DNA of 64,000 bases from Candidatus Shapirobacteria bacterium UBA2283 (GCA_002345725.1 DDWP01000020.1:1433-65432), one strand, 5' to 3'. Positions 1,786 to 51,715 are shown, counted from the stretch's first letter. A program made the numbers and translations. Notes: generated by a model not told the origin, from the sequence alone.

Positions 1786-1859
1786 GCGGGATTAGTTAAT
1801 CGGTATAACTTCAGTTTTCCAAACTGATATGAGGGGTTCGATTCCCCTATCCCGCTCCA
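1786..1859 (+). tRNA. tRNA-Gly (anticodon TCC), CCA encoded
   Basis: GCGGGATTAGTTAATCGGTATAACTTCAGTTTTCCAAACTGATATGAGGGGTTCGATTCCCCTATCCCGCTCCA; acceptor GCGGGAT/ATCCCGC, anticodon loop TTTCCAA. Confidence 0.85.
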
Positions 1860-3408
1860 GATGTGAATAATTTTCCGACAGAAGGGGTTTATCCCCATCT
1901 ATCGGGCTATTTACAGGTTCGAGCCGAGCAATTTCACCCTTTTGCAATTTATCTACCTGTTTGAGGAAGATAAACGTATTTAGAGCCTTGATTCGGACTA
2001 ATCCGTCTTTTAGCTCGAGGTTCGAGCCAAGAATCCTCAGTATCATCCTTCTGGCTTCTGGGTCCTCTTTAGCATCATCAAATAGTTGAATTATTTTTGA
2101 GGCAAAGGCTAAAACCTCTTCCATGGTTTTGGTCCATGAATCCAATCCATCCTGGGCAATAGCACCCTTAGTTTGCGTCTCCTCTTCGAGTATTCTGCTT
2201 TTCTCCTTTTGGTATTGGGCTTCATCAATCATGCCGTCAATTTTCATTCCATACAGGTTTTTCTTTTCGGTAAGGATGGCCTCAAGTCGTTTCGTTAATT
2301 TTCCTTTTTGATTCTTTTCAAATTCAAATTCTTTTTCGTTTCTTCTTTTGAGGTTACCCCTGATCCAAGTTATTAGATCGGGAGAGATTTGCAGGTTGGC
2401 AACGAACGCCAGAACCTGTTCTTCTAGCTTTATGGCATTAAGATACGGCTGACTACAGTGGCCACCTTTTTTGGTACAGCGAGCATAGATAAAGTTTTGT
2501 GACTTGCCAGTAGTTTTATAGTGCTTGGTTTTGTTTTCAGCTGTGATGGATGCACCACACTCTCCACATTTAAGTACTCTCATGAAGTAGAAATCATTAA
2601 AGTTTTTGAAAATTCTTTTCCGACCGTCGATGATATCCTGAACACGGTGAAATTCACTGAGAGTAATCATTGGTTTTTGCTTACCTTCATACCGTTCGCC
2701 ATTGTAGTCGAATTGGCCGGTATAGAACACACGTCGAAAGAACCGAAAGGCTTCGGTCTTGCTTATTGGTTTACCAGTCCGCTTACTCCGAAGTCCCAAG
2801 GCAGTGACTTTTGCTAGAGAGCTTATAACCGTCTCTGTCCCAGTGAGCATTAATTCCCACCACTTTCGGCATAGGTCGAAACGATCAGGATCAGGGTAAA
2901 CGTCCTTTTGACCCTTAGGCTTAGTTTGGTCGTTGAGATATCCAAGCGGCGCTTCTCCAGGCATCCAACCCATCGTGAGCTTGGTGTGCATGCCTCTCTT
3001 AACATTGTCAGACAAATCCTTACTAAACTTGGTGGCCATACCAAACTCAATGAAAAGGAAGGTTGAATTATTTCTATCATAATCCATGGTAGGCGTAACG
3101 ATTTGCATTCCCTCATAATCAACCTTATCAATGAGCGTACCTCCTTCTTTGGCATTTCGACATAATCGATCAGCCTTCCAGCAAAGGATGTGTTTTGCTT
3201 CATTTCGAAGCATTCTGGACAGTAAAGCAGTAAACTCTGGTCGCCTATCGGGTCTTTTGGCTGATTTGCTTTCTCTATAGACACCAAGAATTGTAAAGCC
3301 CTTATCTTCGGCTAATTCGGTACATGTTCTTTGTTGGTCATCTAGAGAAAGGATTTGGCGGTCTTTATCCTCAGAGGATTTTCTACAGTAAATAAAACAA
3401 GTATTCAT
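1792..3408 (-). CDS. large serine recombinase (phage-type serine integrase)
   Basis: N-terminus IYCRKSSEDKDRQILSLDDQQR (serine-recombinase catalytic motif), recombinase domain, zinc-ribbon CGECG...C...HC, C-terminal coiled-coil. The last ~23 codons are antisense to tRNA-Gly(TCC). Confidence 0.8.
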   Translation of the reverse strand: MNTCFIYCRKSSEDKDRQILSLDDQQRTCTELAEDKGFTILGVYRESKSAKRPDRRPEFTALLSRMLRNEAKHILCWKADRLCRNAKEGGTLIDKVDYEGMQIVTPTMDYDRNNSTFLFIEFGMATKFSKDLSDNVKRGMHTKLTMGWMPGEAPLGYLNDQTKPKGQKDVYPDPDRFDLCRKWWELMLTGTETVISSLAKVTALGLRSKRTGKPISKTEAFRFFRRVFYTGQFDYNGERYEGKQKPMITLSEFHRVQDIIDGRKRIFKNFNDFYFMRVLKCGECGASITAENKTKHYKTTGKSQNFIYARCTKKGGHCSQPYLNAIKLEEQVLAFVANLQISPDLITWIRGNLKRRNEKEFEFEKNQKGKLTKRLEAILTEKKNLYGMKIDGMIDEAQYQKEKSRILEEETQTKGAIAQDGLDSWTKTMEEVLAFASKIIQLFDDAKEDPEARRMILRILGSNLELKDGLVRIKALNTFIFLKQVDKLQKGEIARLEPVNSPIDGDKPLLSENYSHLERDRGIEPLISVWKTEVIPIN

Positions 3409-3686
3409 AGTTTAGTAGCCATATCGGGTAAATGGCTGTTGGTGTTGATGTTAACTCGTTGCCGTGTTTTATCAAGTTTATTTTCGATCAGATAGTCAAA
3501 GAGGTTGAGAAGAGCGGTAGCTTGCTCGAATGCTTGTTCGTCGGTTAATTTAACTCCGTAGTCTTTGAGAGCAATTTCTTTGAAGCGATCCAACTCTTCT
3601 CTGGTAACTAACGAATTTGTTAGTATTAATTGGTTTCCGTCCGCTACTGGTGGCTGTGCTACAGTTTCTGTCATTGTATATAACAA
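3405..3686 (-). CDS. hypothetical small protein upstream of the integrase (possible directionality factor, unproven)
   Basis: 93-aa ORF co-oriented and overlapping the integrase start by 4 bp; no recognisable motif. Confidence 0.4.
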   Translation of the reverse strand: MLYTMTETVAQPPVADGNQLILTNSLVTREELDRFKEIALKDYGVKLTDEQAFEQATALLNLFDYLIENKLDKTRQRVNINTNSHLPDMATKL

Positions 3687-3789
3687 ACGTACAGAAACTG
3701 GTGGTTTATCTCAATAAACTTTGTGGATTTTTATGTCCACACAAGTAGACTAATGTAAGTTTCTCTCCAATTTAGCCTGGGAGGTTTGA

Positions 3790-3819
3790 TTGACAGAAAG
3801 GGGTCAAATTTGGTATATT
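3790..3819 (+). promoter_or_regulatory. sigma70-like promoter TTGACA-N18-(TGg)TATATT with extended -10
   Basis: TTGACA at 3790-3795, TGGTATATT at 3811-3819, inside a ~230-bp ORF-free stretch; a T-run lies at 3911-3917. Confidence 0.3.
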
Positions 3820-3917
3820 ACTAGTACCGAATGATCTCGGTGGTGAAAGTACCTTTTAAGGGAGCGAATGTCGGCACAGAAATGTGATCCGTCTTGGCCA
3901 CAGAGATCGAACTTTTT

Positions 3918-4547
3918 TCAGTAAGGCTTCCACAAATCTTCTTCCCTCTTTTTGATCAGCTTATAGAACGAGTCGTCGTTACGGTTATATTTCCTGTAAA
4001 TTGCCCCACAAACCATATCCGCCAGCTGTAGTAGATTGTTACTTTTGGAGTCTTTGTGCCTGATCTGGCCCAAGAGCTTCTCCATATCGGTATTGAGCTT
4101 TTTTCTCAAGTACCCGTTAAACTCCCGGATAAAGTGTTTACTGGTCAAATCGACGAACAATGATGCGTGGTTAATCCGATTCTGAGCTCTCATAAAGAGC
4201 TGGTCGGCCACCAACATGTACAGGCTGTCGGTGGGATTGAGTGGCTCTCTTTTTAGAAGCTTGGTCTTATCGATAATCACGGAGCGATAATGGAAATCAA
4301 AGCGGGACAACTTTCGCAAAAACACTTCCTTCTCATGGCTTGAAGTACCGGTGCTGAATTTAAATTCTCTACCTGGATGAAACTTCAATTCCTTCTTCAG
4401 ATCGTTAATCGCCTCGTTTGCTTTCTCGGCCGCTTCTAGGTCATCGAAAATAACGATGGTCAAGACAAAATAGGAACTAGCGACTCTCTTAAAGTTAAAT
4501 CCGGTGTCACCCGACTCATCCATAAAGATGAGCATGGCTAGTGACAT
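3918..4547 (-). CDS. DUF3800 family protein
   Basis: N-terminus MLIFMDESGDTG is the DUF3800 hallmark; overlaps the downstream ImmA-like gene by 10 bp. Confidence 0.6.
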   Translation of the reverse strand: MSLAMLIFMDESGDTGFNFKRVASSYFVLTIVIFDDLEAAEKANEAINDLKKELKFHPGREFKFSTGTSSHEKEVFLRKLSRFDFHYRSVIIDKTKLLKREPLNPTDSLYMLVADQLFMRAQNRINHASLFVDLTSKHFIREFNGYLRKKLNTDMEKLLGQIRHKDSKSNNLLQLADMVCGAIYRKYNRNDDSFYKLIKKREEDLWKPY

Positions 4548-4990
4548 AGATCCCCCTTTTGAGTTGTTCCAAACCCCAATTTCAAAAAATTTTTAGTAAC
4601 CAGGAAATAGTCAGCTGCCGTTGAAAGAGGTAGTTGTTTTGTTTTATTGAGTAATTCTCGTGGCATTAGTAGTTCGGTGGCAAAACACTGCGCTTCATGT
4701 TCCTGTTTGAAAGTAACGAATTGATCACAACCCTCGAAATAGAATTGATTTCCAGTGTGGAGAAAATGGTGACCTAAGGCGTGGGCAATAAGCTCGCGTC
4801 TTTTTCGTTTATCGGTGTGTGAGCGAATAGCAATACTATCGCCGACATAGACTTCTTTTACTCGGCCGCGAAATGACCACTCGTCCAAGGTTATCCCTTC
4901 GGCGGTAACAATTTTATGTAAATCTATTGGGGCAGTAGAAAGATTGTACTTGCGTAAAATCTGTCTAGCCCTTTTTTGGGCCTTTATCAT
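4538..4990 (-). CDS. ImmA/IrrE family (DUF955) metallopeptidase-like protein, HExxH replaced by HAxxH
   Basis: RELIAHALGHHFLH aligns with the ImmA AHELGHxxLH motif with Glu->Ala; gene is translationally coupled to the upstream XRE repressor gene. Confidence 0.6.
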   Translation of the reverse strand: MIKAQKRARQILRKYNLSTAPIDLHKIVTAEGITLDEWSFRGRVKEVYVGDSIAIRSHTDKRKRRELIAHALGHHFLHTGNQFYFEGCDQFVTFKQEHEAQCFATELLMPRELLNKTKQLPLSTAADYFLVTKNFLKLGFGTTQKGDLCH

Positions 4991-5441
4991 ATTTTTTTCG
5001 GCGTCGAGTTTTTACATACCCGATGTAGTCCATGACCGACTCCTTCTCGCTATTGGTCATGTCCTGAACTTCTTTAAGCATTAACGTAAATGAAGAATCC
5101 TGCTTAAGCTTATTGCTGGTTTTGTCCAAATACCCGGCTTTGTTTAAAAGCATCTCGTTGGGAATTTGATAGACAAACGCCAGTGCTTTCAACTTTAATG
5201 GCGAGGGATGTAAATATTTTCCTGATTCAAGATTAGATAAATACCCTCGCGAAACAGCTGACTGGGGATCTAGTTTCCCATTTTTAATTGCCTCCTTGGT
5301 TGACTCAACCACCGAACGGAGAGTGAGATCTTTTGCTTCTCGTAACTTGCACAAATACTCACCAACGGTAGCAAAATCGTCAGGTCCTTTTAATGTGGTT
5401 TCTTTGTTTGTTCTTATCTTCATATAGGTCAATAAACTCAT
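4965..5441 (-). CDS. XRE-family HTH transcriptional regulator (ImmR/cI-like prophage repressor)
   Basis: HTH-like region LCKLREAKDLTLRSVVEST...SRGYLSNLESG; divergent from a Cro-like gene and upstream of the ImmA-like gene. Confidence 0.55.
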   Translation of the reverse strand: MSLLTYMKIRTNKETTLKGPDDFATVGEYLCKLREAKDLTLRSVVESTKEAIKNGKLDPQSAVSRGYLSNLESGKYLHPSPLKLKALAFVYQIPNEMLLNKAGYLDKTSNKLKQDSSFTLMLKEVQDMTNSEKESVMDYIGYVKTRRRKKYDKGPKKG

Positions 5442-5465
5442 CGATTTTTATTGTAACAGAAAAAG

Positions 5466-5479
5466 TAAGTAATTACTTA
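5466..5479. promoter_or_regulatory. 14-bp perfect palindrome TAAGTAATTACTTA in the divergent repressor/Cro intergenic region (candidate operator)
   Basis: Sequence is self-complementary and lies between divergent HTH genes (5441 and 5578). Confidence 0.4.
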
Positions 5480-5577
5480 TTATTCATATTATAATGATAG
5501 TTGTCTACATAAATGGACACAAACAATCATAAAGTTTATTGAAGTAAATTGCAAGAATTTGTACCTTTGTATATAAC

Positions 5578-5847
5578 ATGACAAAAACGAAATCTAAAAA
5601 AACAATATTCATCAATAAGGACAAGAGAGTTAATAACGAGTTGTTCGATGAAGTGAGACTCACCAAAGGACTATCTCGATTTCAATTGGCTGTCGAGGTT
5701 GAACTTTCTCCCCAAACCGTTAGACGAGTTTTAGTTTCTGATGAAGACCCACGACCATCAACTGTTAAAAAAGTTGGTGACTTTTTAGGAATACCAGCAA
5801 AAGAGTGGTACTTAAAAAGAGAAAACAAGGAGGTGAATCATGGATAA
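5578..5847 (+). CDS. Cro/XRE-like small HTH regulator
   Basis: LTKGLSRFQLAVEVELSPQTVRRVL helix-turn-helix; divergent from the repressor. TTGCAA-N17-TATAAC ends 3 nt before the ATG with no SD (possibly leaderless). Confidence 0.6.
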   Translation: MTKTKSKKTIFINKDKRVNNELFDEVRLTKGLSRFQLAVEVELSPQTVRRVLVSDEDPRPSTVKKVGDFLGIPAKEWYLKRENKEVNHG

Positions 5848-6053
5848 GGCAATGAAATCTAGGATCCGTGCCAGGAAGCGAAGATATTATCTCTACCGCC
5901 TAAAGATATTTATGTGGAAGTGGTTGGCGATATTACTTGGCATCTGGATTATTTACCAGCTTCTTGGGACATTTTTCCACCGATGCTGGTTGTGAATATA
6001 ACAACAATTAATACAGAACATGATTATGTCCAGCAAAAAGTTAAATCGAAACA

Positions 6054-6776
6054 ATGATGGCAAGAATCAACTACACCACAATCAATCACGAGGCTCGAGT
6101 CAGGTTGGGTTTAACCATTAATGAATATTGTGTGTACGATTTAATCCACAACTTGGCCAGTAACCCCAAAAATATTCAGATGGGCTGGTGTTATGCCAAA
6201 AAAGAAACGATAGCTGATTACTTAGATCTGAGTCGAGCAACAGTCTTTCGAGCCATTAAAAAGGGCTTGGAAATAAATCTCCTTGAAAAACATCCTGAGC
6301 AACCCGCGTTCTTAAAAGCCACTAGTGATTGGTACGACTCAGTGATGATTAAAGTCGAGTCTCAAAATGAGACGGCTAGTATCAATATGAGACGCACTCC
6401 GTCTCAAAGTGAGACAAAACCGCGTCTCAAAGTGAGATCAAACAAAGATATAGAGAACAATGAAAATGACAACACAGAAGTTGTCAATTTAAAAGGATCT
6501 TCAAAAGAGATCGTTTCTATTGGCCAAGTGATCGCTCATCACCAGCCCAGCTTATTAGAAGTAAATAACGAGTGGGAAGTGGAAGCCATTCGACTGTGGC
6601 GTGAGTTAAATTTGTCTGGCGATCCGAGCGAACCGTTTGTAAAACACATCCATCGATACATCAAAAAGAATTTACAGGTAAAGCTCTCTATTGCTCTTTC
6701 GTATTGCAAAGATGCAACTAAAGTTCGTGATCGAGAAAAGTTATTTTATTGGCGCTGTGCTAACGAGCCAGCATGA
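6054..6776 (+). CDS. phage replication-initiator-like protein (lambda O-like organisation) with iterons in its linker
   Basis: N-terminal winged-helix-like region (GWCYAKKETIADYLDLSRATVFRAIKKG); central low-complexity linker SQNETASINMRRTPSQSETKPRLKVRS encoded by repeated GTCTCAAARTGAGAC palindromes. Confidence 0.45.
   Translation: MMARINYTTINHEARVRLGLTINEYCVYDLIHNLASNPKNIQMGWCYAKKETIADYLDLSRATVFRAIKKGLEINLLEKHPEQPAFLKATSDWYDSVMIKVESQNETASINMRRTPSQSETKPRLKVRSNKDIENNENDNTEVVNLKGSSKEIVSIGQVIAHHQPSLLEVNNEWEVEAIRLWRELNLSGDPSEPFVKHIHRYIKKNLQVKLSIALSYCKDATKVRDREKLFYWRCANEPA
6359..6438. repeat. iteron array: three copies of 15-bp palindrome GTCTCAAA(A/G)TGAGA(C/T) plus a TGAGAC half-site (candidate ori)
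   Basis: Copies at 6359-6373, 6401-6415 and 6424-6438; half-site 6388-6393; all inside the 6054..6776 CDS. Confidence 0.6.
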
Positions 6777-6785
6777 GCAAACATT

Positions 6786-7886
6786 ATGAAATTTATAGAT
6801 TTATTTGCAGGAATTGGAGGATTTAGATATGGACTTGAAAAAACAAAAAATTACAAATGCGTCTGGTCCAATGAATGGGATAAATTTGCCAACCAAATCT
6901 ATACTAAGCACTTTGGAGAGTGCGACTCCAGAGACATCAGAACTGTCGATACAAAAGACATCCCAGATCACGATCTCCTCTGTGCTGGCTTTCCTTGTCA
7001 ATCATTTAGTATTGCAGGAAAAAGATTGGGATTTGAAGACACCAGAGGGACGATGTTTTTTGAAATCGCTCGGATTATCCGAGACAAAAGACCGAGATAT
7101 TTTCTACTTGAAAATGTTAAGGGGTTACTTAGTCATGACGAAGGAAAAACTTTCCAGACAATACTTGGGGTACTCTCCGACCTGGGGTATGAGTATCAAT
7201 GGCAAGTTCTTAACAGCAAGAATTTTGGAGTTCCACAAAACAGGGAAAGAATATTCATTGTCGGACATCTTAGAGAAACAAGTCGACCAGAAATATTTCC
7301 TATCGGCGAAAGCTACTCAGTTCTTAATAAGAAGAAGCATTCTGAACAAGAAGGAGGGTCGAGGGTTTCGAGCACGATTGATTCCCGTTATGGATCCCTC
7401 AGAAACTCTGGAGAAACCTACTTGCAATACATCGGAGGTATCAAAGGAAAACGAGATATGTGGATAAAAGACGATAAGCAAAACAGTCGAAACTTTAGCC
7501 AAGGTCAAAGGGTTTATTCGACCAATGGTATTGCCTCAACCTTAGCTGGCAATGCCGGTGGCTTAGGTGGAAAGACTGGGCTATATGCAATTCCGGTTCT
7601 AACACCTGACAGGCAAGAAAAACGACAGAATGGGCGTCGGTTTAAAAACGATGGTGAGCCAGCCTTTACTTTGACGAGTCAAGATCGTCATGGTGTTTAT
7701 GATGGCATTAATATTAGGCGCCTTACCCCTCTTGAGTGTGAGCGCTTGCAGGGATTTCCAGACAATTGGACTGAAGGGATTAGCGATACACAAAGATATA
7801 AATGTCTGGGGAACGCGGTGACAACAAACGTTATTGCTGAAATAGGAAAAAGATTAATTTTTATTAAAGGAGGTGAAAATATATGA
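6786..7886 (+). CDS. dcm: DNA (cytosine-5)-methyltransferase
   Basis: Motif I FAGIGGF, motif IV PCQ (GFPCQSFS), motif VI ENV, QNRERIF (motif VIII). Confidence 0.85.
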   Translation: MKFIDLFAGIGGFRYGLEKTKNYKCVWSNEWDKFANQIYTKHFGECDSRDIRTVDTKDIPDHDLLCAGFPCQSFSIAGKRLGFEDTRGTMFFEIARIIRDKRPRYFLLENVKGLLSHDEGKTFQTILGVLSDLGYEYQWQVLNSKNFGVPQNRERIFIVGHLRETSRPEIFPIGESYSVLNKKKHSEQEGGSRVSSTIDSRYGSLRNSGETYLQYIGGIKGKRDMWIKDDKQNSRNFSQGQRVYSTNGIASTLAGNAGGLGGKTGLYAIPVLTPDRQEKRQNGRRFKNDGEPAFTLTSQDRHGVYDGINIRRLTPLECERLQGFPDNWTEGISDTQRYKCLGNAVTTNVIAEIGKRLIFIKGGENI

Positions 7887-8029
7887 CAACCAAGAAATAC
7901 CATTTCGAGGGAAGCAAAAAAGATACTAAGGGCAACACGGTGTATGTCGTTAGTGATTTAAAAACCGGCGAACTTCTGGAGTGGGTCCAGAAAACCTACG
8001 ATGCCCATAAAGGAGAAATTGAATATTAA
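7883..8029 (+). CDS. small hypothetical protein (48 aa), ATGA-coupled to dcm stop
   Basis: ATG overlaps the dcm TGA; MTTKKYHFEGSKKDTKGNTVYVVSDLKTGELLEWVQKTYDAHKGEIEY; below the track length cutoff. Confidence 0.3.
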   Translation: MTTKKYHFEGSKKDTKGNTVYVVSDLKTGELLEWVQKTYDAHKGEIEY

Positions 8030-8034
8030 AACCT

Positions 8035-8298
8035 ATGACTAAAACACGTAATCAATTACTAGAAGAAATTTATAACTCTGTTCATGAGGAAAAACTTCGG
8101 ATGGAAGTTGCCATTGAAACACTGGCAGATGTTGCTGATGACAAAATCATTGAAACGGTGACTCATCGGTCCCCTTTGGGGGCTAGAGAAGAAAACCTCA
8201 CCAAAAAAGATGTGATTGCCAAATATATCCAGGATATCGAAAAGCGAGAAAAAGTATTGGTAATTATTGAAAGATTATTAAAACAAAATGAAAAATAA
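8035..8298 (+). CDS. hypothetical phage protein
   Basis: 87-aa ORF co-oriented within the early gene string, overlapping the next gene start. Confidence 0.4.
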   Translation: MTKTRNQLLEEIYNSVHEEKLRMEVAIETLADVADDKIIETVTHRSPLGAREENLTKKDVIAKYIQDIEKREKVLVIIERLLKQNEK

Positions 8299-9547
8299 AG
8301 ATTACCCAACCATCGCCATAAGCTCTCTGCGATTTGCAGAGTATAACCCACGAAAAGTTACTCGAAGTGTGGTCGACCAATTGAAGCAATCATTGACCGA
8401 GTTTGGTTGTCCGGTGCCGATTGTGGTGAATAGTTATAAAGGTCGAGAGAATGTGGTTGTGGGCGGTGAGAAGCGAGTCCGGGCAGCAACCGAGCTCGGA
8501 TGGACTGAAATTCCTTACAGTCTCGTTAATATTCCACTACAAAAAGAGAAGGCACTCAATCTGGCGCTCAATAAAATCGAGGATCAATGGGACGATGAAA
8601 AACTAGCTCAGGTAATAACTGAACTTACTAAATCCGACTTCGATTTATCGCTGACTGGATTTAATGAAGTAGAAATTAGCAATCTCCTGGATACCACCAT
8701 GCTTCTGCCAGAGAACGAATCAGAGGAGGAATGGGATACTCAAAAAGAACTCGACGAGATCTCTAAACCGATATCCAAATATGGCGAAGTGTACCAACTG
8801 GGTCCACACCGACTGATGTGTGGGGATGCTACCAAGCCAGAAGATATCCAAAAGTTGATGGACGGCAAAGTGGCAGACATAGTGTTCTCTGATCCACCCT
8901 ACAACGTCGCTCACAAAAGCATGGAGAAAGCGGGTAAATTTCATACCAAGGAAGGGATTATACTAAACGACGATATGAGTGATGAAGCTTTTATCAAGTT
9001 CACTCAGGGCTTCTTCACCAGCTTTAACAATGTCCTAAAACCGGGTGGAACTATTTATGTTTGTACCGGCTATTCCTCCTACCCTTTGTTTTATTACCAG
9101 ATGTTAAATAACGGTTTTGTTTTCAGTTCCACGATTGTTTGGGTGAAGCCTTCCTTTGCCATTGGCTGGGGTGACTATAAAAAACAGTACGAACAAGTAA
9201 TGAAAGGTAAACGTGGTCCAGGCAAATCAAAGGCAGAGCCAATCTTATATGGCTGGCGACAAGGAGAGAATCATAAGTTTGAAGGTGATGCTAACGAAAG
9301 TGATGTCTGGGAAATGCCTAGAAAAGCTGTTACTGAAATGGTCCATCCAACCGAGAAGCCTGAATGGTTAATTATGAAAGCAATAAAAGGTGGGAGCCGT
9401 GTCGGACAGTTGGCGGTGGATTTATTCGGTGGATCCGGTAGCACTTTGATGGCAGCGCACAAATTAGGGCGCATTTGTTACCTTATGGAACTTGACCCAA
9501 AATTCTGTGATTTGATCAGAAAACGGGCACAAAGGCTCAAAATTTAG
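8288..9547 (+). CDS. ParB-like nuclease domain fused to DNA N6-adenine/N4-cytosine methyltransferase
   Basis: N-terminal ParB-N-like region (IVVNSYKGRENVVVGGEKRVRAA), MTase motif IV FSDPPYNV; phage-typical ParB-MTase architecture. Confidence 0.75.
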   Translation: MKNKDYPTIAISSLRFAEYNPRKVTRSVVDQLKQSLTEFGCPVPIVVNSYKGRENVVVGGEKRVRAATELGWTEIPYSLVNIPLQKEKALNLALNKIEDQWDDEKLAQVITELTKSDFDLSLTGFNEVEISNLLDTTMLLPENESEEEWDTQKELDEISKPISKYGEVYQLGPHRLMCGDATKPEDIQKLMDGKVADIVFSDPPYNVAHKSMEKAGKFHTKEGIILNDDMSDEAFIKFTQGFFTSFNNVLKPGGTIYVCTGYSSYPLFYYQMLNNGFVFSSTIVWVKPSFAIGWGDYKKQYEQVMKGKRGPGKSKAEPILYGWRQGENHKFEGDANESDVWEMPRKAVTEMVHPTEKPEWLIMKAIKGGSRVGQLAVDLFGGSGSTLMAAHKLGRICYLMELDPKFCDLIRKRAQRLKI

Positions 9548-11735: not shown

Positions 11736-11943
11736 CACACCAAAAGTAATAACAACTCCAGTGACAGAGGCGGAAGCCAAGATCCTGGAGGACATCCGCC
11801 GGGTGAAGTACGGACGAGTGGATGTTTATATCCAGGATGGCAAACCTTACCGTAAGGAAATCATGGAGCAAGAACGTATAACACCAGAGGAAGGTGGTAG
11901 CGCGGGACAATTCCCACGGAAACAATCTGGTATAGAGATTTAA
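11695..11943 (+). CDS. small protein, DUF2292/YezD-like (tentative)
   Basis: YGRVDVYIQDGKPYRKEIMEQE resembles the YezD core (v.iqdGk...e); probable start at MNQTNN (11719). Confidence 0.3.
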   Translation: MPYAKDLNMNQTNNTPKVITTPVTEAEAKILEDIRRVKYGRVDVYIQDGKPYRKEIMEQERITPEEGGSAGQFPRKQSGIEI

Positions 11944-12054
11944 TTACTCTCCGGACATAGGGATAAATTCACATAACCCCCAGCAATTCTTATATACTTA
12001 GAGCAGGAGAAATGTTACTTTTCCCTAACTCAACCGTTTACTTTAATAGAAGCG

Positions 12055-13484: not shown

Positions 13485-13551
13485 CCGTCTTTACGGGCAA
13501 AGATGAAGAAAATGTCAAAAAGGGTGGATATTACAGTGATTATGGGTATAC

Positions 13552-14773: not shown

Positions 14774-14794
14774 ATTAGTGCTTATAGAAAGGAG

Positions 14795-37855: not shown

Positions 37856-37868
37856 AAGCTAAAAAAAT

Positions 37869-38159: not shown

Positions 38160-38161
38160 AT

Positions 38162-38749: not shown

Positions 38750-38764
38750 GGAGGTGAAAAAAAT

Positions 38765-40685: not shown

Positions 40686-40689
40686 AAAT

Positions 40690-42800: not shown

Positions 42801-42802
42801 CT

Positions 42803-44104: not shown

Positions 44105-45168
44105 TGGCAACAAAACAATTAGGCGGTTGGTATTGGCAACCAGAACAAAATAAAGCTCTCCGGTGGTGGGGTACTGACTCTGCTGGAAAAGATATTTATA
44201 CCGAAGGCGACGAACCAAGTAAGCCCCAAACTGTATCCAATTTAAGCACGGGGTTAAGTACAATCGGATCCGGAAACGTTTTGGGCTTTGACATGGGAAC
44301 TCTCAACACTAAATTTCAAGATACCTATGGCCAGATTCAAGGGCTATCGACCGAACTAGAAGACTACTCAACCCGTCGATATGATGAGGAATACAGCAAG
44401 GCAGGCTTGAGTAAAACTAAAGATGAAATTGCAGCATTAGACGCTAGTATCGCCAGTGAGAAAAATGTCCGAGATGAATCAGTAAGCAAGGTTAGGAAAA
44501 ATCCTGGCTACTCAGCTGCAACCATTACGGGCGAAACTGGAGAGGTCCAAAAACTGGCTGGCTCTAAAATTGGTAATTTAATTGAAGAGCGAAACGCCAA
44601 AGCCCAAACCTACAATGCGACACTGGGTGAAATCACCCAAAAAGTAGCGACGGAAACTCAAGGTAAACAAAGTAAGCTCAACAACTTGCGTTCTGATTTG
44701 CAGCTTATAAGCGGACTGGTTGATTCCTACAACAAAACCAGATCGACCGAGCTTTCGAGTCAAACCGATGAAACACATTGGGAAAAAGAGTTTGAACTCA
44801 AACTCTATGGTGCCCAAACCGATCGAATGAAAACTGGTGATGGTGGTGGCACGTACGCTAAACAACAGGTTAAGGATGCCTTTGGTAATGTGACTGGTTT
44901 TTTTGATCCAGTATCAGGCCAAACAACACCTTATCAAACTGATTCTCAAAAACAACAAACCACGACCGTAAACGAAGGCGAACTGCGAAATGAAATTCGA
45001 TCAGCCTGGAAAACTGGGCTATCAGCCGATCAACTAAAAACGAATCTGGCCAACGTCACGACCGATAAAGGCAAAAACGCCTCACAGGTCATTGATGAAG
45101 AATGGCAGTTAAAAACACAACCGGGAGTTATGGGCTTTCTAAGAAGGCTCTTTACTCCGGGGGTTTAA
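44104..45168 (+). CDS. hypothetical phage structural protein (354 aa)
   Basis: SD AAGGAGGTGAACACATA; Ser/Thr/Gln-rich with a coiled-coil-like region. Confidence 0.4.
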   Translation: MATKQLGGWYWQPEQNKALRWWGTDSAGKDIYTEGDEPSKPQTVSNLSTGLSTIGSGNVLGFDMGTLNTKFQDTYGQIQGLSTELEDYSTRRYDEEYSKAGLSKTKDEIAALDASIASEKNVRDESVSKVRKNPGYSAATITGETGEVQKLAGSKIGNLIEERNAKAQTYNATLGEITQKVATETQGKQSKLNNLRSDLQLISGLVDSYNKTRSTELSSQTDETHWEKEFELKLYGAQTDRMKTGDGGGTYAKQQVKDAFGNVTGFFDPVSGQTTPYQTDSQKQQTTTVNEGELRNEIRSAWKTGLSADQLKTNLANVTTDKGKNASQVIDEEWQLKTQPGVMGFLRRLFTPGV

Positions 45169-45172
45169 ATTT

Positions 45173-48100
45173 ATGGACAACTTTTTAGAACAACTAAAGA
45201 AAAACATTACCTCGTCGTTTGCCAATACCAAACAGTCAGTGGGTGATATTTTTGGTAAGGCTCAAACAAGTCTGACTAGTCTGGTGCGTGGTGGTCAACA
45301 AAAAGTTGATGAGGTTATTAAACCACTGCAATACGATATCGCAATCTCTGGCCCAACAAGTGGAAGCTACAAACCGTTCAAGAATTTATATTTGGAGACG
45401 GCAGCCCAAGCGTTAGGAGTTGGAGCTCGGGACACTGATGTTTTGGAGAGATTGCCCAGTGCAACTTTTGGTGCACTTAAGGGTGCTGGCAATGGATTAG
45501 GTGAAGCGTTGTCGTTTGGTTGGTGGAAACCAGAAATAAAGTATGCCGATGATATAGAAAAACAAGCTGGTGACATGACTGAGATTGAGTTCAACGTCTT
45601 GGGAACCATTGGAACGTTTTTGGTTGGTGGCGAATTGGTCCAAGGAGCTTTGCGCGGTGTGCCCCTTCTGGCACGGGTAGCAACTGTCGCTCCTAGAACT
45701 TTCAATGTGTTATCTACTGGGCTGACGTTTGCTGGACTCACTCAAATTCAAAAAGATGAAGCGCAAAAGAATGCATTACAGCGAGCAAAAGATTTTATGG
45801 GTGATTTTGCTCTCGGTGGAGCCTTCTCAATTGCCGGAATGAAAACATCATTTCTGAAGTCATCAGCCATTATCGGTCCAGCAACTTATGTCACCTCACT
45901 TCTAAAAGGAGAGTCAAACGGTGATGCGCTTAAAGATACAGCAGCCATGATGGGGCTCCACTCCCTTAATTTCGCGGTGGCTAAGTTTCTACCTAATGGA
46001 TCAGAAATAGAAAATCGAATAGAAAAAGCGGCCAGTGAGCAGCTCAAAATAACAAAGGCTGAAGCCATGGAGTATCTGGGCATTAGTGACAAAGCTACTG
46101 CTCAGGAGATGAAACAAGCCTGGAAGAATAAGGTGGTTGATATTACTAAGCGCTTCCCAGCTCAGGCCAATCAAACACCACAAGAAATGGGAGTATTTAA
46201 TCAAGCTTGGAATACTGCCAACAGAGCCTATGAGTTTTTAGCTAAAGTCAGTAACCCAGAGGGTTATACAGGGAAATCATTCGCTCAAGAGTTTCAAGAT
46301 CTATATTACCAACTCTGGAGAGATGTTCCCGATAAGCGTTCTGCGATTGTCAAAGCCGTCCGTAGTTTACCTGCGGGACTGTCAGTTCGGGCTACTCTTA
46401 ATGATGGCCAGCGTAATGAAATTGTTTCGGCGCTTGGTGGTGAAGGGGCACAAACGAGACTGGGGAAAGTGGCGGAACTGACTGATGCAGATTTGGTGTC
46501 AGTGGCCATGGAAAACAAAATAAAAGTGACTCCTTCAAAACCCGCAGTCACTGAAGAGTTGGATATAAGCACTGAAACATATAAGCATGGCACACCTGTG
46601 CCAGATAAAATTTTGAAGGAAGGTTTTAGTTTAGTAAAAACAGGTGAAACGAGCGGTTATGGAGGTGTTATGGGTAGAGGTATTTACCTTGATCTCACTC
46701 CCGAAGGCGAAGGGGCAAAACTGTACGGTACAGTTGTTGATGCAAAGATTAAAAAGGGGCTGAATTTATTCGAGTGGTCAGGAAAACTTGATGAATTGTA
46801 CACAGAAGCTACAAAGTATGGAGATCCAGAAACAATAACCGATGTTTTACTTAAGAAGGGATATGACGGAGTAAAGGGATTGAATCAAATGGTGATTTTT
46901 GACCCAAAAAATGTCGTACCAGTTGTAGACGGAAAACCTACTGTCACCTCAAAAATATCTTTGTCACCACAAGAACAAAAAGCTGTCAAAGCGGCCGAGA
47001 TCCGAGATAAATATATAACACCAGAAGAAAAAGAATTGGCAGATGCGGAAAAGATTCCTAGTATCGGGGACATTCTCCAGTCATCAAGCTTTCAGGACAG
47101 ATTACAAGGAAAAGTAATTGCGCCGACCACCCCGAGAGCTGATCAATTGAGAGAACCACCTTCCGGTAAACCGCCTCGTTCACCTCAGGAGATCTCCTTA
47201 AACGACGCCCCACCTTCACCTGAAGGCAGTGCCTTGGATGAGATCGATAAAATGGTTGGCAAGATCTCAACCGCAAAGTCGATTCTGGGAAATGTAAAGG
47301 ATGCAATTCAATCTTTCCCACGAATGTTTACTGACCGCTTTGCTCCCATTAAACAATTTGAGGATCAAATTACCAAACTTCAAGGACAGCCAATTGATAT
47401 TGATTCCAGTCCATATGTGGCAGCCAGAATGTATGCTGGTCGCTTTGGAATTGTTGAGGGAAGCTTCAAAGATTTATATAACATCATACAGCCGGTTCGA
47501 AAGCTTCGAGCTGACTTTACTCGATTTGTTTTGTCCGAACGCGCTATTGAACGAGGAGAGCGAGGGTTTGATAACCCAAATGGAGTTACAAAGGAAACTG
47601 CAGAGCAAGCACTCGTCGAGCTAAAAGATAAAGTAGGTGACAAGGCCTTCAAAGCCTTCGAGCAGGTCGGCCAGGGAATTCAAAATTGGTCCATTAAATC
47701 AATTCTCCAGCCGATGAAAGATGCCGGAATCCTGGGTAAAGAAGCTTTTACTTCAATTATTGAGAACAATAAAAAATGGATGCCATTCCATGTTTTGGAA
47801 TATATGCCCTCAATTGAGCAAGCCGATCACATGGCGGTAGGAAGCGAAACGTTTTCAGTAAGTAAACAAGGCATCGTTAAATCTCTAGAAGGAACTGAGA
47901 AAATCATCCGTGATCCATTTATGTCGATCGTGGATAACCTGACAAAGTCGGTAAGTCTGATAGAACGTAATAAAGTAGCCCAGAAACTCATTGAACTGAG
48001 AAATAGCCATCCAGATACAGCTAAAGAGTTTATAAAGTTTTTACCGGATGGTCTGCGACCACCACCAGAATGGGAAGCGATTAGTGTCTTTATTGATGGC

Positions 48101-49798
48101 AAAGTAACCAAGTGGGCGGTTCCCAAAGATCTCTCAGAAGCCATGCATGCCCTGTCACCGGCTGAAACCGGTTTAATGGGTAAAATGATCCTAGCTTCTT
48201 CGAAAGTCTTCAAAGCCGGAACCACCTCACTCTATTTCCCTTTTACTCTTTCAAACGCCATTCGGGATTACCAAACTGCCACAATCGTTTCCAAATGGGG
48301 TTTCAATCCGGCCAACTGGCTGTCGGGATTTAAGGATGGTCTAAAAGCTGCCTTTAAGTTTGACTCCAAAGCCTACGACGAATTTATGACTAACAAAGGT
48401 GGTTATGGTGGTTACATCGAATCAGCCAAGGGGCTAGCTGTTGCCTCTGAACAACTTTTCACCCCTGAGTGGATGAATCGAGCAAAAATTGTCGTCAATC
48501 CATTTCAACTGATTAGTACCTTCTCGGAAGCGATCGAGCTGGCTCCACGACTCGGAGTTTATAAAAAAGGAATCGCTCAGGGTGCAACCCAACTAGAAGC
48601 TGCCTATGAAGCTCGGAATGTGACGGTAGATTTTGCTAAAGCCGGAATTGAGGGTCGACTCATCAATATGTGGATTCCTTTCGTGAATGCCCGTTGGCAA
48701 GGGCTTCTCACCATCGGCCGAGTAATGAAAGAGAATCCAATCAGAACGACGGCTCGTGCTTTGGCATTGACGGTCCTACCTGGTGTGGCTACTTACTTTT
48801 ATAACGTCATGACCCATGAAGATCTTTGGGACGATATTCCTCAATGGGCTAAAGATACTTATTTTATTATGATCGTAGGTGAAGGCCAGGATAGTCAGGG
48901 CAATCGGGTACCAAAAGTGGTTCAGATTCCCAAGGGCGATATGGGAACGATTTTCTTCAACCCGTTAATGTATGCGTTGGAGTATGTCCGAAAACAAGAG
49001 CCAACCAACCTCTTCAAACTAGGTCTGGAGTGGATGAGCCAATTATCGCCGGTTGCGTTTACCAGAGATGGAGAATTGTCGGCTCAGTCCTTCCTTGGTA
49101 GCGCCCTGCCTCCAGCATTAAAGGTGCCGTTGGAACTAGCGACAAACACTAATCTTTTCACCGGATTCCCAATTGTCCCACAACGTCTCGAGAAAGTGGC
49201 TCCAACGGAACAATATGACGAAAAAACGCCACAAGTCGCCGTTACGGTTGGACGAGCTTTGGGCATCAGCCCGATGAAGCTGACCCATGCTATTTCCGGA
49301 CTTGCCGGAAGCTTCTCTCGCCAAGTGATGAACCCGGCCGATATCATCAACCTCACCACTCAGCGCTTCTATCGGCTTCAGGGTGGGCAAAAACAACAAG
49401 CTGCCTGGGATATTAAGTACGATGCCGAAGTCGGTTATAACACCACACGGCTACAGATGAAACGATTGATCGAGCAAGGCAAGCTGCAGGAAGCTCAACA
49501 GATGGCCCTCAAATGGAACCAGGAGGCAGGAAAGCTCATTCCCGAGGTTGTACCACTCTTAATGAAAGATGACCCCAAGGAAGCGGCGTTATTCCAAAGT
49601 AGCATCACCTTTGATGCTGCAGATTTACAGCGACTCTTAAAAACAACTCTCCCTGGTGGAGTTCCGGAAAATACTGGAACTGATCAAACACTAATCCCGC
49701 TTCAACCTGGACTTAATACTAATTCGACCATGGGACAACTATTCCAGGGTGGTCAACAAAATAGTGGTGACACTATAAGGAGGTTAATTTACAAATGA
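45173..49798 (+). CDS. giant (1541 aa) virion/ejection-type polyvalent protein with embedded ADP-ribosyltransferase-like domain
   Basis: Hydrophobic Gly/Ala-rich N-terminal segments; internal KHGTPVP...GYGGVMGRGIYLDL...GLNQMVIFDPKNV resembles the H-Y-[EDQ] ART motif triad. Confidence 0.45.
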   Translation: MDNFLEQLKKNITSSFANTKQSVGDIFGKAQTSLTSLVRGGQQKVDEVIKPLQYDIAISGPTSGSYKPFKNLYLETAAQALGVGARDTDVLERLPSATFGALKGAGNGLGEALSFGWWKPEIKYADDIEKQAGDMTEIEFNVLGTIGTFLVGGELVQGALRGVPLLARVATVAPRTFNVLSTGLTFAGLTQIQKDEAQKNALQRAKDFMGDFALGGAFSIAGMKTSFLKSSAIIGPATYVTSLLKGESNGDALKDTAAMMGLHSLNFAVAKFLPNGSEIENRIEKAASEQLKITKAEAMEYLGISDKATAQEMKQAWKNKVVDITKRFPAQANQTPQEMGVFNQAWNTANRAYEFLAKVSNPEGYTGKSFAQEFQDLYYQLWRDVPDKRSAIVKAVRSLPAGLSVRATLNDGQRNEIVSALGGEGAQTRLGKVAELTDADLVSVAMENKIKVTPSKPAVTEELDISTETYKHGTPVPDKILKEGFSLVKTGETSGYGGVMGRGIYLDLTPEGEGAKLYGTVVDAKIKKGLNLFEWSGKLDELYTEATKYGDPETITDVLLKKGYDGVKGLNQMVIFDPKNVVPVVDGKPTVTSKISLSPQEQKAVKAAEIRDKYITPEEKELADAEKIPSIGDILQSSSFQDRLQGKVIAPTTPRADQLREPPSGKPPRSPQEISLNDAPPSPEGSALDEIDKMVGKISTAKSILGNVKDAIQSFPRMFTDRFAPIKQFEDQITKLQGQPIDIDSSPYVAARMYAGRFGIVEGSFKDLYNIIQPVRKLRADFTRFVLSERAIERGERGFDNPNGVTKETAEQALVELKDKVGDKAFKAFEQVGQGIQNWSIKSILQPMKDAGILGKEAFTSIIENNKKWMPFHVLEYMPSIEQADHMAVGSETFSVSKQGIVKSLEGTEKIIRDPFMSIVDNLTKSVSLIERNKVAQKLIELRNSHPDTAKEFIKFLPDGLRPPPEWEAISVFIDGKVTKWAVPKDLSEAMHALSPAETGLMGKMILASSKVFKAGTTSLYFPFTLSNAIRDYQTATIVSKWGFNPANWLSGFKDGLKAAFKFDSKAYDEFMTNKGGYGGYIESAKGLAVASEQLFTPEWMNRAKIVVNPFQLISTFSEAIELAPRLGVYKKGIAQGATQLEAAYEARNVTVDFAKAGIEGRLINMWIPFVNARWQGLLTIGRVMKENPIRTTARALALTVLPGVATYFYNVMTHEDLWDDIPQWAKDTYFIMIVGEGQDSQGNRVPKVVQIPKGDMGTIFFNPLMYALEYVRKQEPTNLFKLGLEWMSQLSPVAFTRDGELSAQSFLGSALPPALKVPLELATNTNLFTGFPIVPQRLEKVAPTEQYDEKTPQVAVTVGRALGISPMKLTHAISGLAGSFSRQVMNPADIINLTTQRFYRLQGGQKQQAAWDIKYDAEVGYNTTRLQMKRLIEQGKLQEAQQMALKWNQEAGKLIPEVVPLLMKDDPKEAALFQSSITFDAADLQRLLKTTLPGGVPENTGTDQTLIPLQPGLNTNSTMGQLFQGGQQNSGDTIRRLIYK

Positions 49799-50898
49799 AA
49801 CAACTAACACTGCCCGTAACTTTTAGTCAAAACGACAGTCGATGGAAAACTAGTCCTTTAGGAACCAGAGGCACGATTGGCTCATATGGTTGCTTGGAGA
49901 ACGATGCAACTATGGTAGCCAATTATTATGGCTTTCAAGAGACTCCACTTACCTTAAACGAGAAACTGACCAACAATGCCGGATATCAGGATGGCAATAA
50001 ATTCGTCTGGAGTGTATTTGCTCGATTATTTGGTCTGAAGTATTCTGGTCAATGGTCCAATGCGGGAGCACTAACTCAAACCCAGATGGATCAAATCAGA
50101 AAAGCCATTGATAATGGATATCCCGTTTTTCTACAGATCGACACAATTCCTTTAACATCTGCCCTTGATGAACACTGGATCCTAGCAATTGGCTATGAGG
50201 GTGACGACTTTCTGGTTCAGGATCCTTGGGATGGAGCGACTAAACGAATCACCAGCTGGGGTGTCACTCCTCAAAAACTGATCTATGCCTGGTGTTGGTT
50301 TGAAGGGAAACCAGCTCAGGTCGATGTGGCCGTAGGATGTCTGGTCCCAAATACTCCGGAGTGGCGTACCAAGTATGAGCAAATTGTGGCTTTAGCTACC
50401 AAGTGGGCTGATACCCTTAAGGTTTTGGAGATTACCGACGACCCTAACACTACCCCTACCGACAAAATTAAGAGCATCCTGGCAGGGTATAAAAGTCGTG
50501 AAACTGACCTATCTAACAAGCTAAATGATAAACAGGGCTTGCTCGACAATGCCAATAAGGAGATTGAGAACAGAACCGAACAGGTAAGCAGACTCGAGGG
50601 TGATCTGCTAGAGAAGGATAAATACTATAAATCCCTAGTTGACGCACTAAATAAGCAGGTCAAAAACGGCTCAGATGCCCTACCCTTGGCTCAGGCTAGA
50701 GTTGGGGTGCTTGAGGGGGAACTGGATGAAGCCAATAAAGCCAAGGGCCGTGCCTTGTTGGATGCCCAGCAAAACAAAAGCCAGCTGGAAGCCTGTCAAA
50801 AGGGAATCATTACGCCCACTCCTCAACTAATTATGAAGATGACCATTCAATACATTACAAATTTAGTAACCAAAAAAGGAGGTGAGAATAATGGATAA
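49795..50898 (+). CDS. peptidase C39-like (papain-fold) cell-wall hydrolase, putative endolysin
   Basis: FSQNDSRW...GSYGCLENDATMVANYYG (Cys motif), DEHWILAIGYEGDDFLVQDPWDG (His/Asp); followed by holin genes; C-terminal coiled-coil. Confidence 0.5.
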   Translation: MKQLTLPVTFSQNDSRWKTSPLGTRGTIGSYGCLENDATMVANYYGFQETPLTLNEKLTNNAGYQDGNKFVWSVFARLFGLKYSGQWSNAGALTQTQMDQIRKAIDNGYPVFLQIDTIPLTSALDEHWILAIGYEGDDFLVQDPWDGATKRITSWGVTPQKLIYAWCWFEGKPAQVDVAVGCLVPNTPEWRTKYEQIVALATKWADTLKVLEITDDPNTTPTDKIKSILAGYKSRETDLSNKLNDKQGLLDNANKEIENRTEQVSRLEGDLLEKDKYYKSLVDALNKQVKNGSDALPLAQARVGVLEGELDEANKAKGRALLDAQQNKSQLEACQKGIITPTPQLIMKMTIQYITNLVTKKGGENNG

Positions 50899-51154
50899 CA
50901 TATATCCCGAATGGAAGAAAGTCGCTTGGAGGTTTCTCCGAGTGTTTATATCAGCCTTTTTATTCACCGGATCGATGGTGTTGATAAACGCCCAGCCAGT
51001 AGCACTGAGTAGTTGGGACAAATTTCTCAATACTCTGATATTGCCATTTTTATTGGCAGGTGGGGTGGCTGGCTTAAATGCAGTAGGAAAACTTTTGAGA
51101 GATTTGTTTGGCACTGAGGATCAAACAGGCCTCGTCGACAAATTACCATTCTAA
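50882..51154 (+). CDS. holin (two TM helices)
   Basis: TM1 FLRVFISAFLFTGSMVLI, TM2 FLNTLILPFLLAGGVAGLNAV; SD AAAGGAGGTGAGAATA; overlaps the endolysin gene end. Confidence 0.6.
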   Translation: MRIMDNIYPEWKKVAWRFLRVFISAFLFTGSMVLINAQPVALSSWDKFLNTLILPFLLAGGVAGLNAVGKLLRDLFGTEDQTGLVDKLPF

Positions 51155-51159
51155 GCACT

Positions 51160-51411
51160 ATGAATAACAATAGCCAATCCACTGACACAAATATGAGAGA
51201 AAGAATTGCCAAGCTCGAGGAACGAGTGGACGGTGGATTGGGTTATATCAATAAAGAGCTGGTGGAAATTAAAGAGAACCATCTCTATCACCTACAAGCC
51301 GATGTAACGGATTTGAAAATGAAGGTTAATACTCTAGCGGTGAAAGTAAGTGTGGGAGTAGCAATTGCGACAATTCTAATCGATTTAGTTTTTCGCTTCC
51401 TACTGAAGTAG
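51160..51411 (+). CDS. XhlA-like lysis-associated protein
   Basis: N-terminal coiled-coil RIAKLEERVDG plus C-terminal TM VSVGVAIATILIDLVF. Confidence 0.45.
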   Translation: MNNNSQSTDTNMRERIAKLEERVDGGLGYINKELVEIKENHLYHLQADVTDLKMKVNTLAVKVSVGVAIATILIDLVFRFLLK

Positions 51412-51412
51412 T

Positions 51413-51715
51413 TTATTGGCCTTTTTTCTCTTTCTTGGTATCTGGCTCAAGTAAATTGTGGAGATCCTTAGTGAAGCCATCAAAGGCATTGGCATTTAAA
51501 ACGGTGAAATAGGTGGATCCAGGAACACCAGTAAAGACTAAAGTATCACCAGGCTGAATGTTCTGGGCTTTTCTTAGTTTGGCAGGTATAACGAGCTGAC
51601 CGCGTGAACTTACCGGCGACGTACCGAATACAACGGTCTTAGCTGACTTTTTATCTTTTGGCTTACTTTTATCGTTCATATTTGAAATCAACTTGCTTTG
51701 AGACAGGTAAAGCAA
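51413..51715 (-). CDS. AbrB/MazE/SpoVT-type DNA-binding domain protein
   Basis: SSRGQLVIPAKLRKAQNIQPGDTLVF swapped-hairpin motif; probable start MNDKSKP. Confidence 0.55.
   Translation of the reverse strand: MLYLSQSKLISNMNDKSKPKDKKSAKTVVFGTSPVSSRGQLVIPAKLRKAQNIQPGDTLVFTGVPGSTYFTVLNANAFDGFTKDLHNLLEPDTKKEKKGQ

Follow-up and report, generated by a model that had tools for sequence, protein, structure and literature searches.

In P2-like phages a defence hotspot adjoins cos and is flanked by the replication gene gpA and the portal gene gpQ; P4 satellites have a hotspot too (Rousset et al. 2022, PMC9122126). The portions available to us of two further papers report temperate tailed phages integrated in genomes of the candidate phyla radiation (CPR), namely in Roizmanbacteria (~27 kb; Chen et al. 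2019, PMC6509639) and in Patescibacteria, with an average of ~44 kb in Paceibacteria (PMC12455944); these portions describe no defence hotspots, no targeting of tRNA-Gly by serine integrases and no operon uniting a sigma factor with MltG. Here we analyse a stretch of 64,000 nucleotides from Candidatus Shapirobacteria bacterium UBA2283 (GCA_002345725.1 DDWP01000020.1:1433-65432), called the window below, in which terL, the gene of the large terminase subunit, and the portal gene are 17.7 kb apart. We put at roughly 85% the probability that its region ~1858-51978 is one integrated temperate phage of 50.1 kb with an accessory hotspot at the terL-portal junction, where defence islands are swapped upstream of portal.

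A single insertion at tRNA-Gly(TCC)

The insertion becomes visible against unoccupied sites, which were found by scanning reference genomes with the protein encoded by the flanking gene tgt; its matches come from metagenome-assembled genomes of Candidatus Shapirobacteria and Woesebacteria (75-81% identity), which makes the host an uncultured, ultra-small CPR bacterium of the Microgenomates group. In one of these genomes (L043) tgt is followed by tRNA-Leu(TAA)/Pro, tRNA-Gly(TCC), a 10-bp spacer and then the exact six-tRNA array of the window; another (L045) has the same order with a spacer of 283 bp. Since tRNA-Gly(TCC) adjoins the array in both, 1860-52467 is one insertion relative to these genomes. 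The attL crossover lies near the tRNA-Gly(TCC) 3' end, at about 1851-1859. The right phage arm ends with ...GGTTCGAGCTGAGTACCGTCCCCAGCTC (attR): it is similar to two relatives (L050 and L051) up to ...GGTTCGAGCnnnGTACnGTnnCCAGCTC at ~51978 and divergent beyond ~51979, which sets the prophage at ~1858-51978. The preliminary description had bounded the region by tRNA-Gly with an adjacent serine integrase on the left, as we found it, and by the six tRNAs on the right; the array is there (52468-53160), but the prophage ends at ~51978, not at 51715. The att search proposed there, with the 3' half of tRNA-Gly(TCC), matches near the right end only the intact tRNA-Gly(GCC) and is uninformative for this type of enzyme. 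Serine integrases as a class leave only a very short shared core, so that a test with half a tRNA is weak; the ends were set instead by relatives and empty sites.

The integrase has the domain order of a large serine integrase, with an N-terminal catalytic resolvase domain (residues 5-144), a recombinase domain (199-263, 0.6 bits under the Pfam cut-off) and a zinc ribbon (278-336). Its 3' end runs antisense through the entire tRNA-Gly gene, and its last ~22 codons are host tRNA DNA in the lysogen. The same antisense overlap is present in relatives L001, L008, L009, L010 and L040, at TCC, CCC and GCC genes. The predicted attP sequence joins ...CCAGCTC to CAGATGTG..., and the integrase read from this reconstructed attP would have 563 aa versus 538 aa in the integrated form; its C-terminal tail may thus differ between the integrated and excised states.

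The insertion holds a full prophage gene set: packaging, head, tail and lysis genes plus an XRE/ImmA/cro-like switch (Table 1), and the hallmark genes are all full-length open reading frames (ORFs) with conserved homologues. A paralogue search of the window found TerL, TerS, integrase, portal and capsid in one copy each; neither this search nor a family scan of the ORFs of 17.4-35 kb revealed a second integrase or terminase. The window has no long direct repeats at the element ends and no internal att-like repeats. As described earlier, terS and terL lie at about 9.6-11.7 kb (9563-11735), and portal and virion genes only from 29.4 kb. Portal is the weakest call among these genes, yet it appears consistent: a profile of 13 homologues matches the solved portal proteins 9lbz (1.9e-5) and 9k09 (1.8e-4), homologues 45-77% identical are present in all relatives, and the gene precedes a scaffold-position gene and an SU10-type capsid, as expected for the portal position.

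Searches with TerL and with portal each returned 21 IMG/VR loci, and relatives were compared by tblastn synteny. Looked up by exact protein identity, the window belongs to JGI metagenome 3300040971 and to two SRA assemblies (SRR1313259, SRR1313261). In close relatives (TerL 77-81% identical) the whole order is integrase, terL, small ORF, sigma factor, anti-sigma factor, (MltG), exported proteins, portal, head/tail genes and lysin, and the same left-to-right order is found in ~10 relatives at tRNA-Gly TCC, CCC or GCC; counted over IMG/VR, about 20 relatives share the layout from integrase to lysis genes. Empty sites, the order shared at three tRNA-Gly genes and the single-copy hallmarks all speak for one prophage with a large terL-portal hotspot, one of the two possibilities raised at first. 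The closest cultured phages reach no more than 26% (TerL) and 30.5% (capsid) identity, which points to a phage lineage with no cultured relative.

Variable cargo on both sides of portal

The preliminary description counted 17.5 kb of cargo between terL and portal. The gap is real and measures 17.7 kb, and everything that had been listed in it (a pair of extracytoplasmic function (ECF) sigma and anti-sigma factors, MltG, secreted proteins and an 11.8-kb defence island) was located in the sequence; just ~11.6 kb, however, is variable cargo, and the remainder is a conserved phage operon, which makes up about one third of the gap. Two cargo slots flank portal.

Slot 1 lies between the operon and portal. 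In C25309/L037, L005 and L007 it is nearly empty (~0.14 kb), and portal follows the last exported-protein gene within ~140 bp; other relatives have their cargo exactly there, with slot sizes of 9.6-23 kb. At least six arrangements occur in 10 relatives. Nucleotide comparison with relatives places the right end of the variable DNA at ~29070. The slot thus has the properties of a hotspot, with conserved flanks (the homologue of 16870-17442 on one side, leader and portal on the other) around highly variable, defence-rich content. GC content is 36.4% in the island, 41-46% in the phage core and 38% in the host flank.

In the window slot 1 carries Gabija, where gajA adjoins gajB with a 19-nt overlap, a Cas4-like nuclease, and type I restriction-modification (RM) with HsdR, HsdS and HsdM in one cluster (23261-29070). 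The counterpart in C38436 (L008/L025/L051) and C09690 consists of an SNF2/HKD helicase, a type IIG/PglX-like methylase, a Ppl-like protein, a Cas4-like nuclease (84% aa identity) and an LmuA/protease-like protein. C25010 (L001/L022/L050) has type III RM, C01594 a different type III RM, and C29288 and C37483 have GajA with an SNF2/methylase pair, to which C37483 adds an IetA-like ATPase. A small HTH_17/MerR-type (helix-turn-helix) gene at the right-hand edge is common to cargo-bearing relatives whatever system follows and is absent from the empty slot of C25309 (L004/L037); it may regulate the leftward cargo operon. Judged by their homologues, the slot 1 systems would protect the lysogen, and hence the prophage, from other phages.

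The Cas4-like nuclease stands next to Gabija here, and its 84% identical copies stand beside SNF2/methylase genes in L008 (19370-20122) and L009 (19639-20391), so it seems to behave as an independent module.

Slot 2 begins at the portal stop codon and is 3.2 kb long in the window. Among relatives it measures 0.7-0.8 kb in L028 and L030 and 6.4-9.7 kb in others, where its cargo includes a HEPN protein, a P-type ATPase, a C5 methylase with a HerA-like ATPase, an S26 peptidase and a VWA/AAA pair. One ORF of the window's slot 2, of 203 aa, has no family match, and we guess from its sequence that it might be alpha/beta-hydrolase-like.

The downstream end of each slot consists of a leader, a hairpin and a T-run directly before the next late gene. 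The 21-nt leader GCCTAACGAAnCTnTCGGGGC shared by the two is found in 2 copies in the window versus 0.01 expected, and both hairpins stood out as unusually long in a terminator scan of the window. Relatives have the element at both positions, with cargo or none (L022-L029, L036, L037). Each of the two classes keeps its stem, in which some of the changes are compensatory; the interiors of the classes are wholly different, and their ends identical. A strong hairpin with a T-run also directly precedes portal in more distant relatives, among them those whose terL and portal are adjacent. No Rfam family matched the leader/hairpin at the gathering threshold, and the Rfam scan of the window gave tRNAs only. 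At most one of the two leader copies could be a cos site. The space between hairpin and ATG is too short for a promoter, so the portal mRNA must contain the hairpin, which points to a role in read-through control, processing or stabilisation: the element may serve as a terminator under regulation, as a site of processing or to stabilise the mRNA.

These observations suggest how the locus could have arisen. The serine integrase would have placed the phage at the tRNA-Gly(TCC) 3' end in a Shapirobacteria-like CPR host. The ancestral layout would be terL-terminator-portal, as in distant relatives and SU10, with the terL-portal junction acting as a boundary of transcription units. Cargo upstream of the terminator-like element would be insulated from the late genes, and insertions would be tolerated at the junction because of this presumed insulation. 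Related phages would then swap cargo through homologous recombination within the conserved sequences at either side, for slot 1 the last exported-protein gene (left) and the stretch of HTH gene, leader and portal (right). A bolder proposal, to which we give a rather small chance, is that the leader/hairpin copies are dedicated cis elements that define the cargo slots, either as an antitermination/processing switch or as recombination sites for island capture, and not just passive terminators. The switch would let the phage turn from cargo expression in the lysogen to its late genes; the recombination sites, used to take up and swap islands of several kb, would form an integron-like platform within an operon for phage morphogenesis. 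On this view temperate phages would be one of the main sources of innate immunity for CPR bacteria with their ~1-Mb genomes.

Counter-evidence, alternatives and the operon after terL

Several observations weigh against the origin proposed here. Both empty-site genomes are of species different from the window's host, as their tgt identity of 75-80% indicates, and a NUDIX gene (52016-52453) between ~51978 and tRNA-Leu(CAG) is absent from both; it is outside the prophage and may be specific to this host or left over from an older insertion. The terminator or insulator role of the hairpins is a prediction from sequence and modelled folding. The promoters ahead of the leaders match the consensus weakly, and the one at the portal copy of the window fell short in the scan; the sigma-70 scan as a whole turns up fewer promoter-like sites than shuffled sequence does, which leaves any promoter assigned close to the leaders a weak one. 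Defence activity, too, is predicted purely from homology. Prophages of this lineage have estimated sizes of ~40 to ~58 kb (C25309, C25010, C38436), which is wide for one capsid type (capsids of these three are 84-92% identical to that of the window), and the cargo-rich copies may not be packageable. Finally, activity of this prophage is unproven: the exact predicted attP junction had 0 matches in metagenome and viral contigs, an absence that is weak evidence, and a degenerate lineage-wide attP pattern had 0 matches in viral contigs. A looser pattern gave 120 metagenome loci, none near integrase or phage genes, which we treated as noise.

The spread of sizes and the lack of an attP junction in public assemblies would also fit a single prophage that has since become defective or been domesticated, grown by its cargo beyond what can be packaged and kept as a host defence island. 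Such a fate is compatible with the origin given above, and we consider it unlikely, though worth keeping in mind: the hallmark genes are full-length with conserved homologues, a head of SU10 type holds 77 kb in SU10, and missing junction contigs tell little.

The 11.6-kb island might instead be an autonomous mobile element (a satellite, transposon or integrative island) and not cargo exchanged by recombination. Its lower GC, its opposite strand and the HTH_17 gene at its edge, which has an excisionase-family fold, fit such an element, as does the recurrence of GajA/GajB and PD-(D/E)XK genes in other combinations in relatives. We regard this as quite improbable, since genes for a recombinase, a transposase or replication are missing from 17443-29249, a search for direct repeats (inverted ones were not part of it) gave none at the flanks, and different cargo occupies the same slot boundaries in relatives, with the second slot behaving alike.

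A terL-portal distance as large as this one is unusual for temperate tailed phages, while terminase and portal lie far apart in T7 and phi29. Together with the different GC and strand of the intervening DNA, it could suggest two side-by-side elements, a left remnant from integrase to terL and a right remnant from portal to the lysis genes, with unrelated DNA between them; the preliminary description had kept two degraded or juxtaposed elements as its other possibility. This does not agree with what the window contains, namely no second terminase, no att repeats that delimit two elements, and one integrase, terL, portal and capsid, which together make exactly one full gene set. Nor does it agree with the order shared by ~10 relatives at three tRNA-Gly genes, or with the minimal relatives L037, L005 and L007, in which the left block comes to within 140 bp of portal; we see only a very slight chance for it. 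Across the lineage the terL-portal gap is 0.2-0.66 kb in the most distant relatives (L014-L019, ~50% TerL identity), 2.9-8.6 kb in intermediate ones (57-79%), always with an MltG homologue included, and 4.6-28 kb in close ones, so it is clearly derived within this phage lineage. Least credible of all is the reading of the gap as a piece of host chromosome that a rearrangement enclosed between two prophage fragments, for although MltG/YceG and ECF sigma/anti-sigma pairs are typically chromosomal and MltG and the exported proteins have no PHROG family match, the empty sites have tRNA-Gly(TCC) beside the six-tRNA array without these genes, and the block moves with the phage, with MltG between terL and portal even at 57-70% TerL identity.

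The genes after terL can be assigned to the phage lineage, and not to host DNA, because the phage carries this block with it to different tRNA-Gly genes. Its order is kept in L001, L002, L004/L037, L005-L010 and L020, and its sigma, anti-sigma, MltG and exported-protein genes are conserved at 30-85% aa identity. It starts with an ECF module: the sigma factor has only sigma-70 regions 2 and 4, its gene overlaps that of a membrane partner, and it has its own ECF-type promoter. The promoter motif, TGTTAC-N16-CGTT, which we take to resemble Bacillus-type ECF promoters, is present once in the window; every close relative has it conserved too, preceded there by a TATAAT box. The membrane partner has no family match and would act as the anti-sigma factor. 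The ECF sigma factor probably controls its own operon, and the operon, whose MltG is an enzyme that cleaves glycan strands, is likely to remodel the cell envelope or to sense it, with lysogenic conversion and the remodelling of the wall at lysis as possible settings. We also considered that the sigma factor drives the late genes via the leaders and dropped this as unsupported, as the motif stands solely before the sigma gene and is absent at the leaders. As a separate observation, the anti-sigma-like protein and the first exported protein (14795-15598) share a C-terminal domain (24-35% identity by tblastn) that has no Pfam match, and this paralogous pair is conserved across relatives.

The early arm, kept in relatives at 60-85% aa identity, comprises a small ORF with no assigned function (3405-3686), DUF3800, an ImmA/M78 peptidase, a minus-strand XRE repressor, a divergent cro-like HTH gene, a replication-initiator-like protein, a C5 methylase and a ParB-N6/N4 methylase; the DUF3800 protein matches PADLOC PDC-M04A. 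A KhpA-like RNA-binding protein among the virion genes is unusual for a phage structural region, and in distant relatives L012, L016, L018 and L019 it is near terL. Host DNA at 53000-59000 is unlike the prophage, with strongly positive GC skew (~+0.25) and low GC (35-38%).

Table 1. Features of the window with coordinates, strand and basis of assignment
Feature	Position	Strand	Basis or remark
tgt	387-1505	-	left flank
tRNA-Pro and tRNA-Leu(TAA)	between tgt and tRNA-Gly(TCC)	-	left flank
tRNA-Gly(TCC), integration target	1786-1859	+	ARAGORN, Rfam
Large serine integrase	1792-3408	-	Pfam Resolvase 9.6e-21, Zn_ribbon_recom 4.7e-9, Recombinase 5.7e-4
Lysogeny/replication/methylase arm	3405-9547	mixed	Pfam, PHROGs
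terS	9563-10204	+	PHROG 6299 5.5e-6 (weak support)
terL	10188-11735	+	Pfam GpA_ATPase 1e-15; PHROG 675 'terminase large subunit' 3.5e-92
Conserved post-terminase operon	11695-17442	+	Pfam, synteny
Small ORF	start of post-terminase operon (from 11695)	+	
ECF-type promoter TGTTAC-N16-CGTT	12013-12038	+	17 nt upstream of sigma ORF
ECF sigma factor	12055-12579	+	Sigma70_r2 8.8e-16, r4_2 2.2e-7; PHROG 1740 3.9e-25
Anti-sigma-like membrane protein	12576-13484	+	4-nt overlap with sigma gene; central hydrophobic segment
YceG/MltG	13552-14556	+	Pfam 4e-63
Four exported/membrane proteins	14795-15598, 15595-16218, 16302-16844, 16870-17442	+	
Slot 1 (hotspot 1)	17443-29072	-	variable between relatives; PADLOC, Pfam
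Two ORFs, no assigned function	17453-18277	-	
Cas4-like PD-(D/E)XK nuclease	18285-19046	-	Pfam
GajB, 646 aa	19061-21001	-	UvrD-helicase 1.2e-37; PADLOC GajB 3.2e-50
GajA, 753 aa	20983-23244	-	AAA_15 2.9e-26, OLD-like_TOPRIM 2.1e-10, PADLOC GajA 8e-63
HsdR	23261-26308	-	PADLOC REase_I E=0, 1183 bits
HsdS	26298-27482	-	PADLOC Specificity_I 3.2e-105
HsdM	27487-29070	-	PADLOC MTase_I 1.2e-131
HTH_17/MerR-type gene, 58 aa	29073-29249	-	Pfam HTH_17 4.7e-12; right-hand edge of island
Leader GCCTAACGAACCTGTCGGGGC, 20-bp-stem hairpin, T-run	29373-29445	+	stem ends 16 nt before portal ATG
Portal	29452-31296	+	SU10_portal 1.4e-4 (under Pfam cut-off); PHROG portal 1.6e-4
Slot 2 (hotspot 2)	31293-34288	-	
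203-aa ORF	slot 2	-	
Aldo/keto reductase, D-2-hydroxyacid dehydrogenase, DUF5680	slot 2	-	Pfam
Leader GCCTAACGAAACTATCGGGGC, 25-bp-stem hairpin, T-run	34451-34527	+	stem ends 21 nt before first head-module gene
Virion and lysis module	34539-51411	+	Pfam, PHROGs; conserved in relatives
Two small ORFs	start of virion module (34539 on)	+	head module
Scaffold-position gene	35120-35911	+	position
SU10-type major capsid protein	35961-37127	+	Pfam 4.9e-44
KH-domain protein, KhpA-like	38765-39079	+	Pfam
Virion amidase	39000-40685	+	Pfam/PHROGs
SU10-type adaptor	40690-41334	+	Pfam/PHROGs
Tail fibre	42803-44104	+	Pfam/PHROGs
LPD38 protein, 1541 aa	45173-49798	+	Pfam/PHROGs
C39-like lysin	49795-50898	+	Pfam/PHROGs
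Two small membrane proteins	after lysin, to 51411	+	
AbrB/MazE-fold gene	51413-51715	-	Pfam; right phage arm runs on to ~51978
Six host tRNAs, Leu(CAG)-Phe-Gly(GCC)-Val-Leu(GAG)-Gln	52468-53160	+	tRNA scan

Comparison with described systems

Prophage annotation commonly takes the junction of terL and portal for an invariant landmark. In this lineage 10-23 kb of cargo is tolerated there, and prophage callers that split or discard 'broken' prophages by a terL-portal criterion would misjudge such elements. The conserved flanks and the leader offer a simple handle for new defence genes in CPR phages. One prophage here combines Gabija, type I RM and a Cas4-like nuclease, and its relatives use the same slot for no fewer than five further types of system; this variety suggests that temperate phages deliver immunity to CPR bacteria, which, in the available part of one account, are said to have tiny genomes and rarely to carry CRISPR-Cas (PMC6509639). 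The C5 methylase of the early arm has its counterpart, carried as cargo, in some of the published CPR prophages, again as far as the available parts of the papers go (PMC6509639, PMC12455944).

Two of the defence systems correspond to described ones: Gabija, with a GajA of ATPase plus OLD-type TOPRIM domains and a UvrD-like GajB alongside, and type I RM with its three Hsd proteins. The Bacillus cereus prototypes of GajA and GajB are shorter than the 753 and 646 aa found here, and, unlike in known Gabija systems, a Cas4-like nuclease follows GajB and the system is on a CPR prophage.

In its head genes the phage resembles SU10, the structural prototype of this capsid family, and other Kuravirus members, with a strong match of the capsid (4.9e-44) and weaker ones of portal and adaptor. 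The SU10 order (terL, terminator, portal, small ORF, scaffold, capsid) is the order of the window minus the cargo, and the SU10 GenBank record annotates the terminator in the terL-portal interval, 25 nt ahead of the ATG of portal. SU10 differs in being a 77-kb E. coli phage with no integrase in its first 30 kb and with terL and portal only 61 bp apart.

Another textbook parallel is with the morons of lambdoid phages and the PR'-qut-tR' region of lambda, where accessory genes sit at boundaries of transcription units of the late region. The terminator of PR'-qut-tR' is just downstream of the late promoter and is read through for expression of the structural genes. Unlike in lambda, we identified no Q-like antiterminator here, and two elements with a conserved 21-nt leader bracket one gene, portal; the cargo units, of 3-23 kb, also differ from the single genes that lambdoid morons are.

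The hotspots of P2 and P4 remain the nearest comparison. There, as here, a fixed slot of a temperate phage has conserved flanks that include the portal gene, many alternative defence systems fill it across relatives, and exchange is thought to run by recombination in the flanks (PMC9122126). Unlike in P2, the slot of the present phage is inside the row of packaging and morphogenesis genes, between the terL-linked operon and portal, with no known cos adjacent. It also departs from both P2 and P4 in having two slots around portal, a boundary formed by leader and hairpin, and a CPR host, and is known from its sequence alone. The locus is therefore a variant of the prophage defence-hotspot theme, in a lineage that appears to have no cultured relative.

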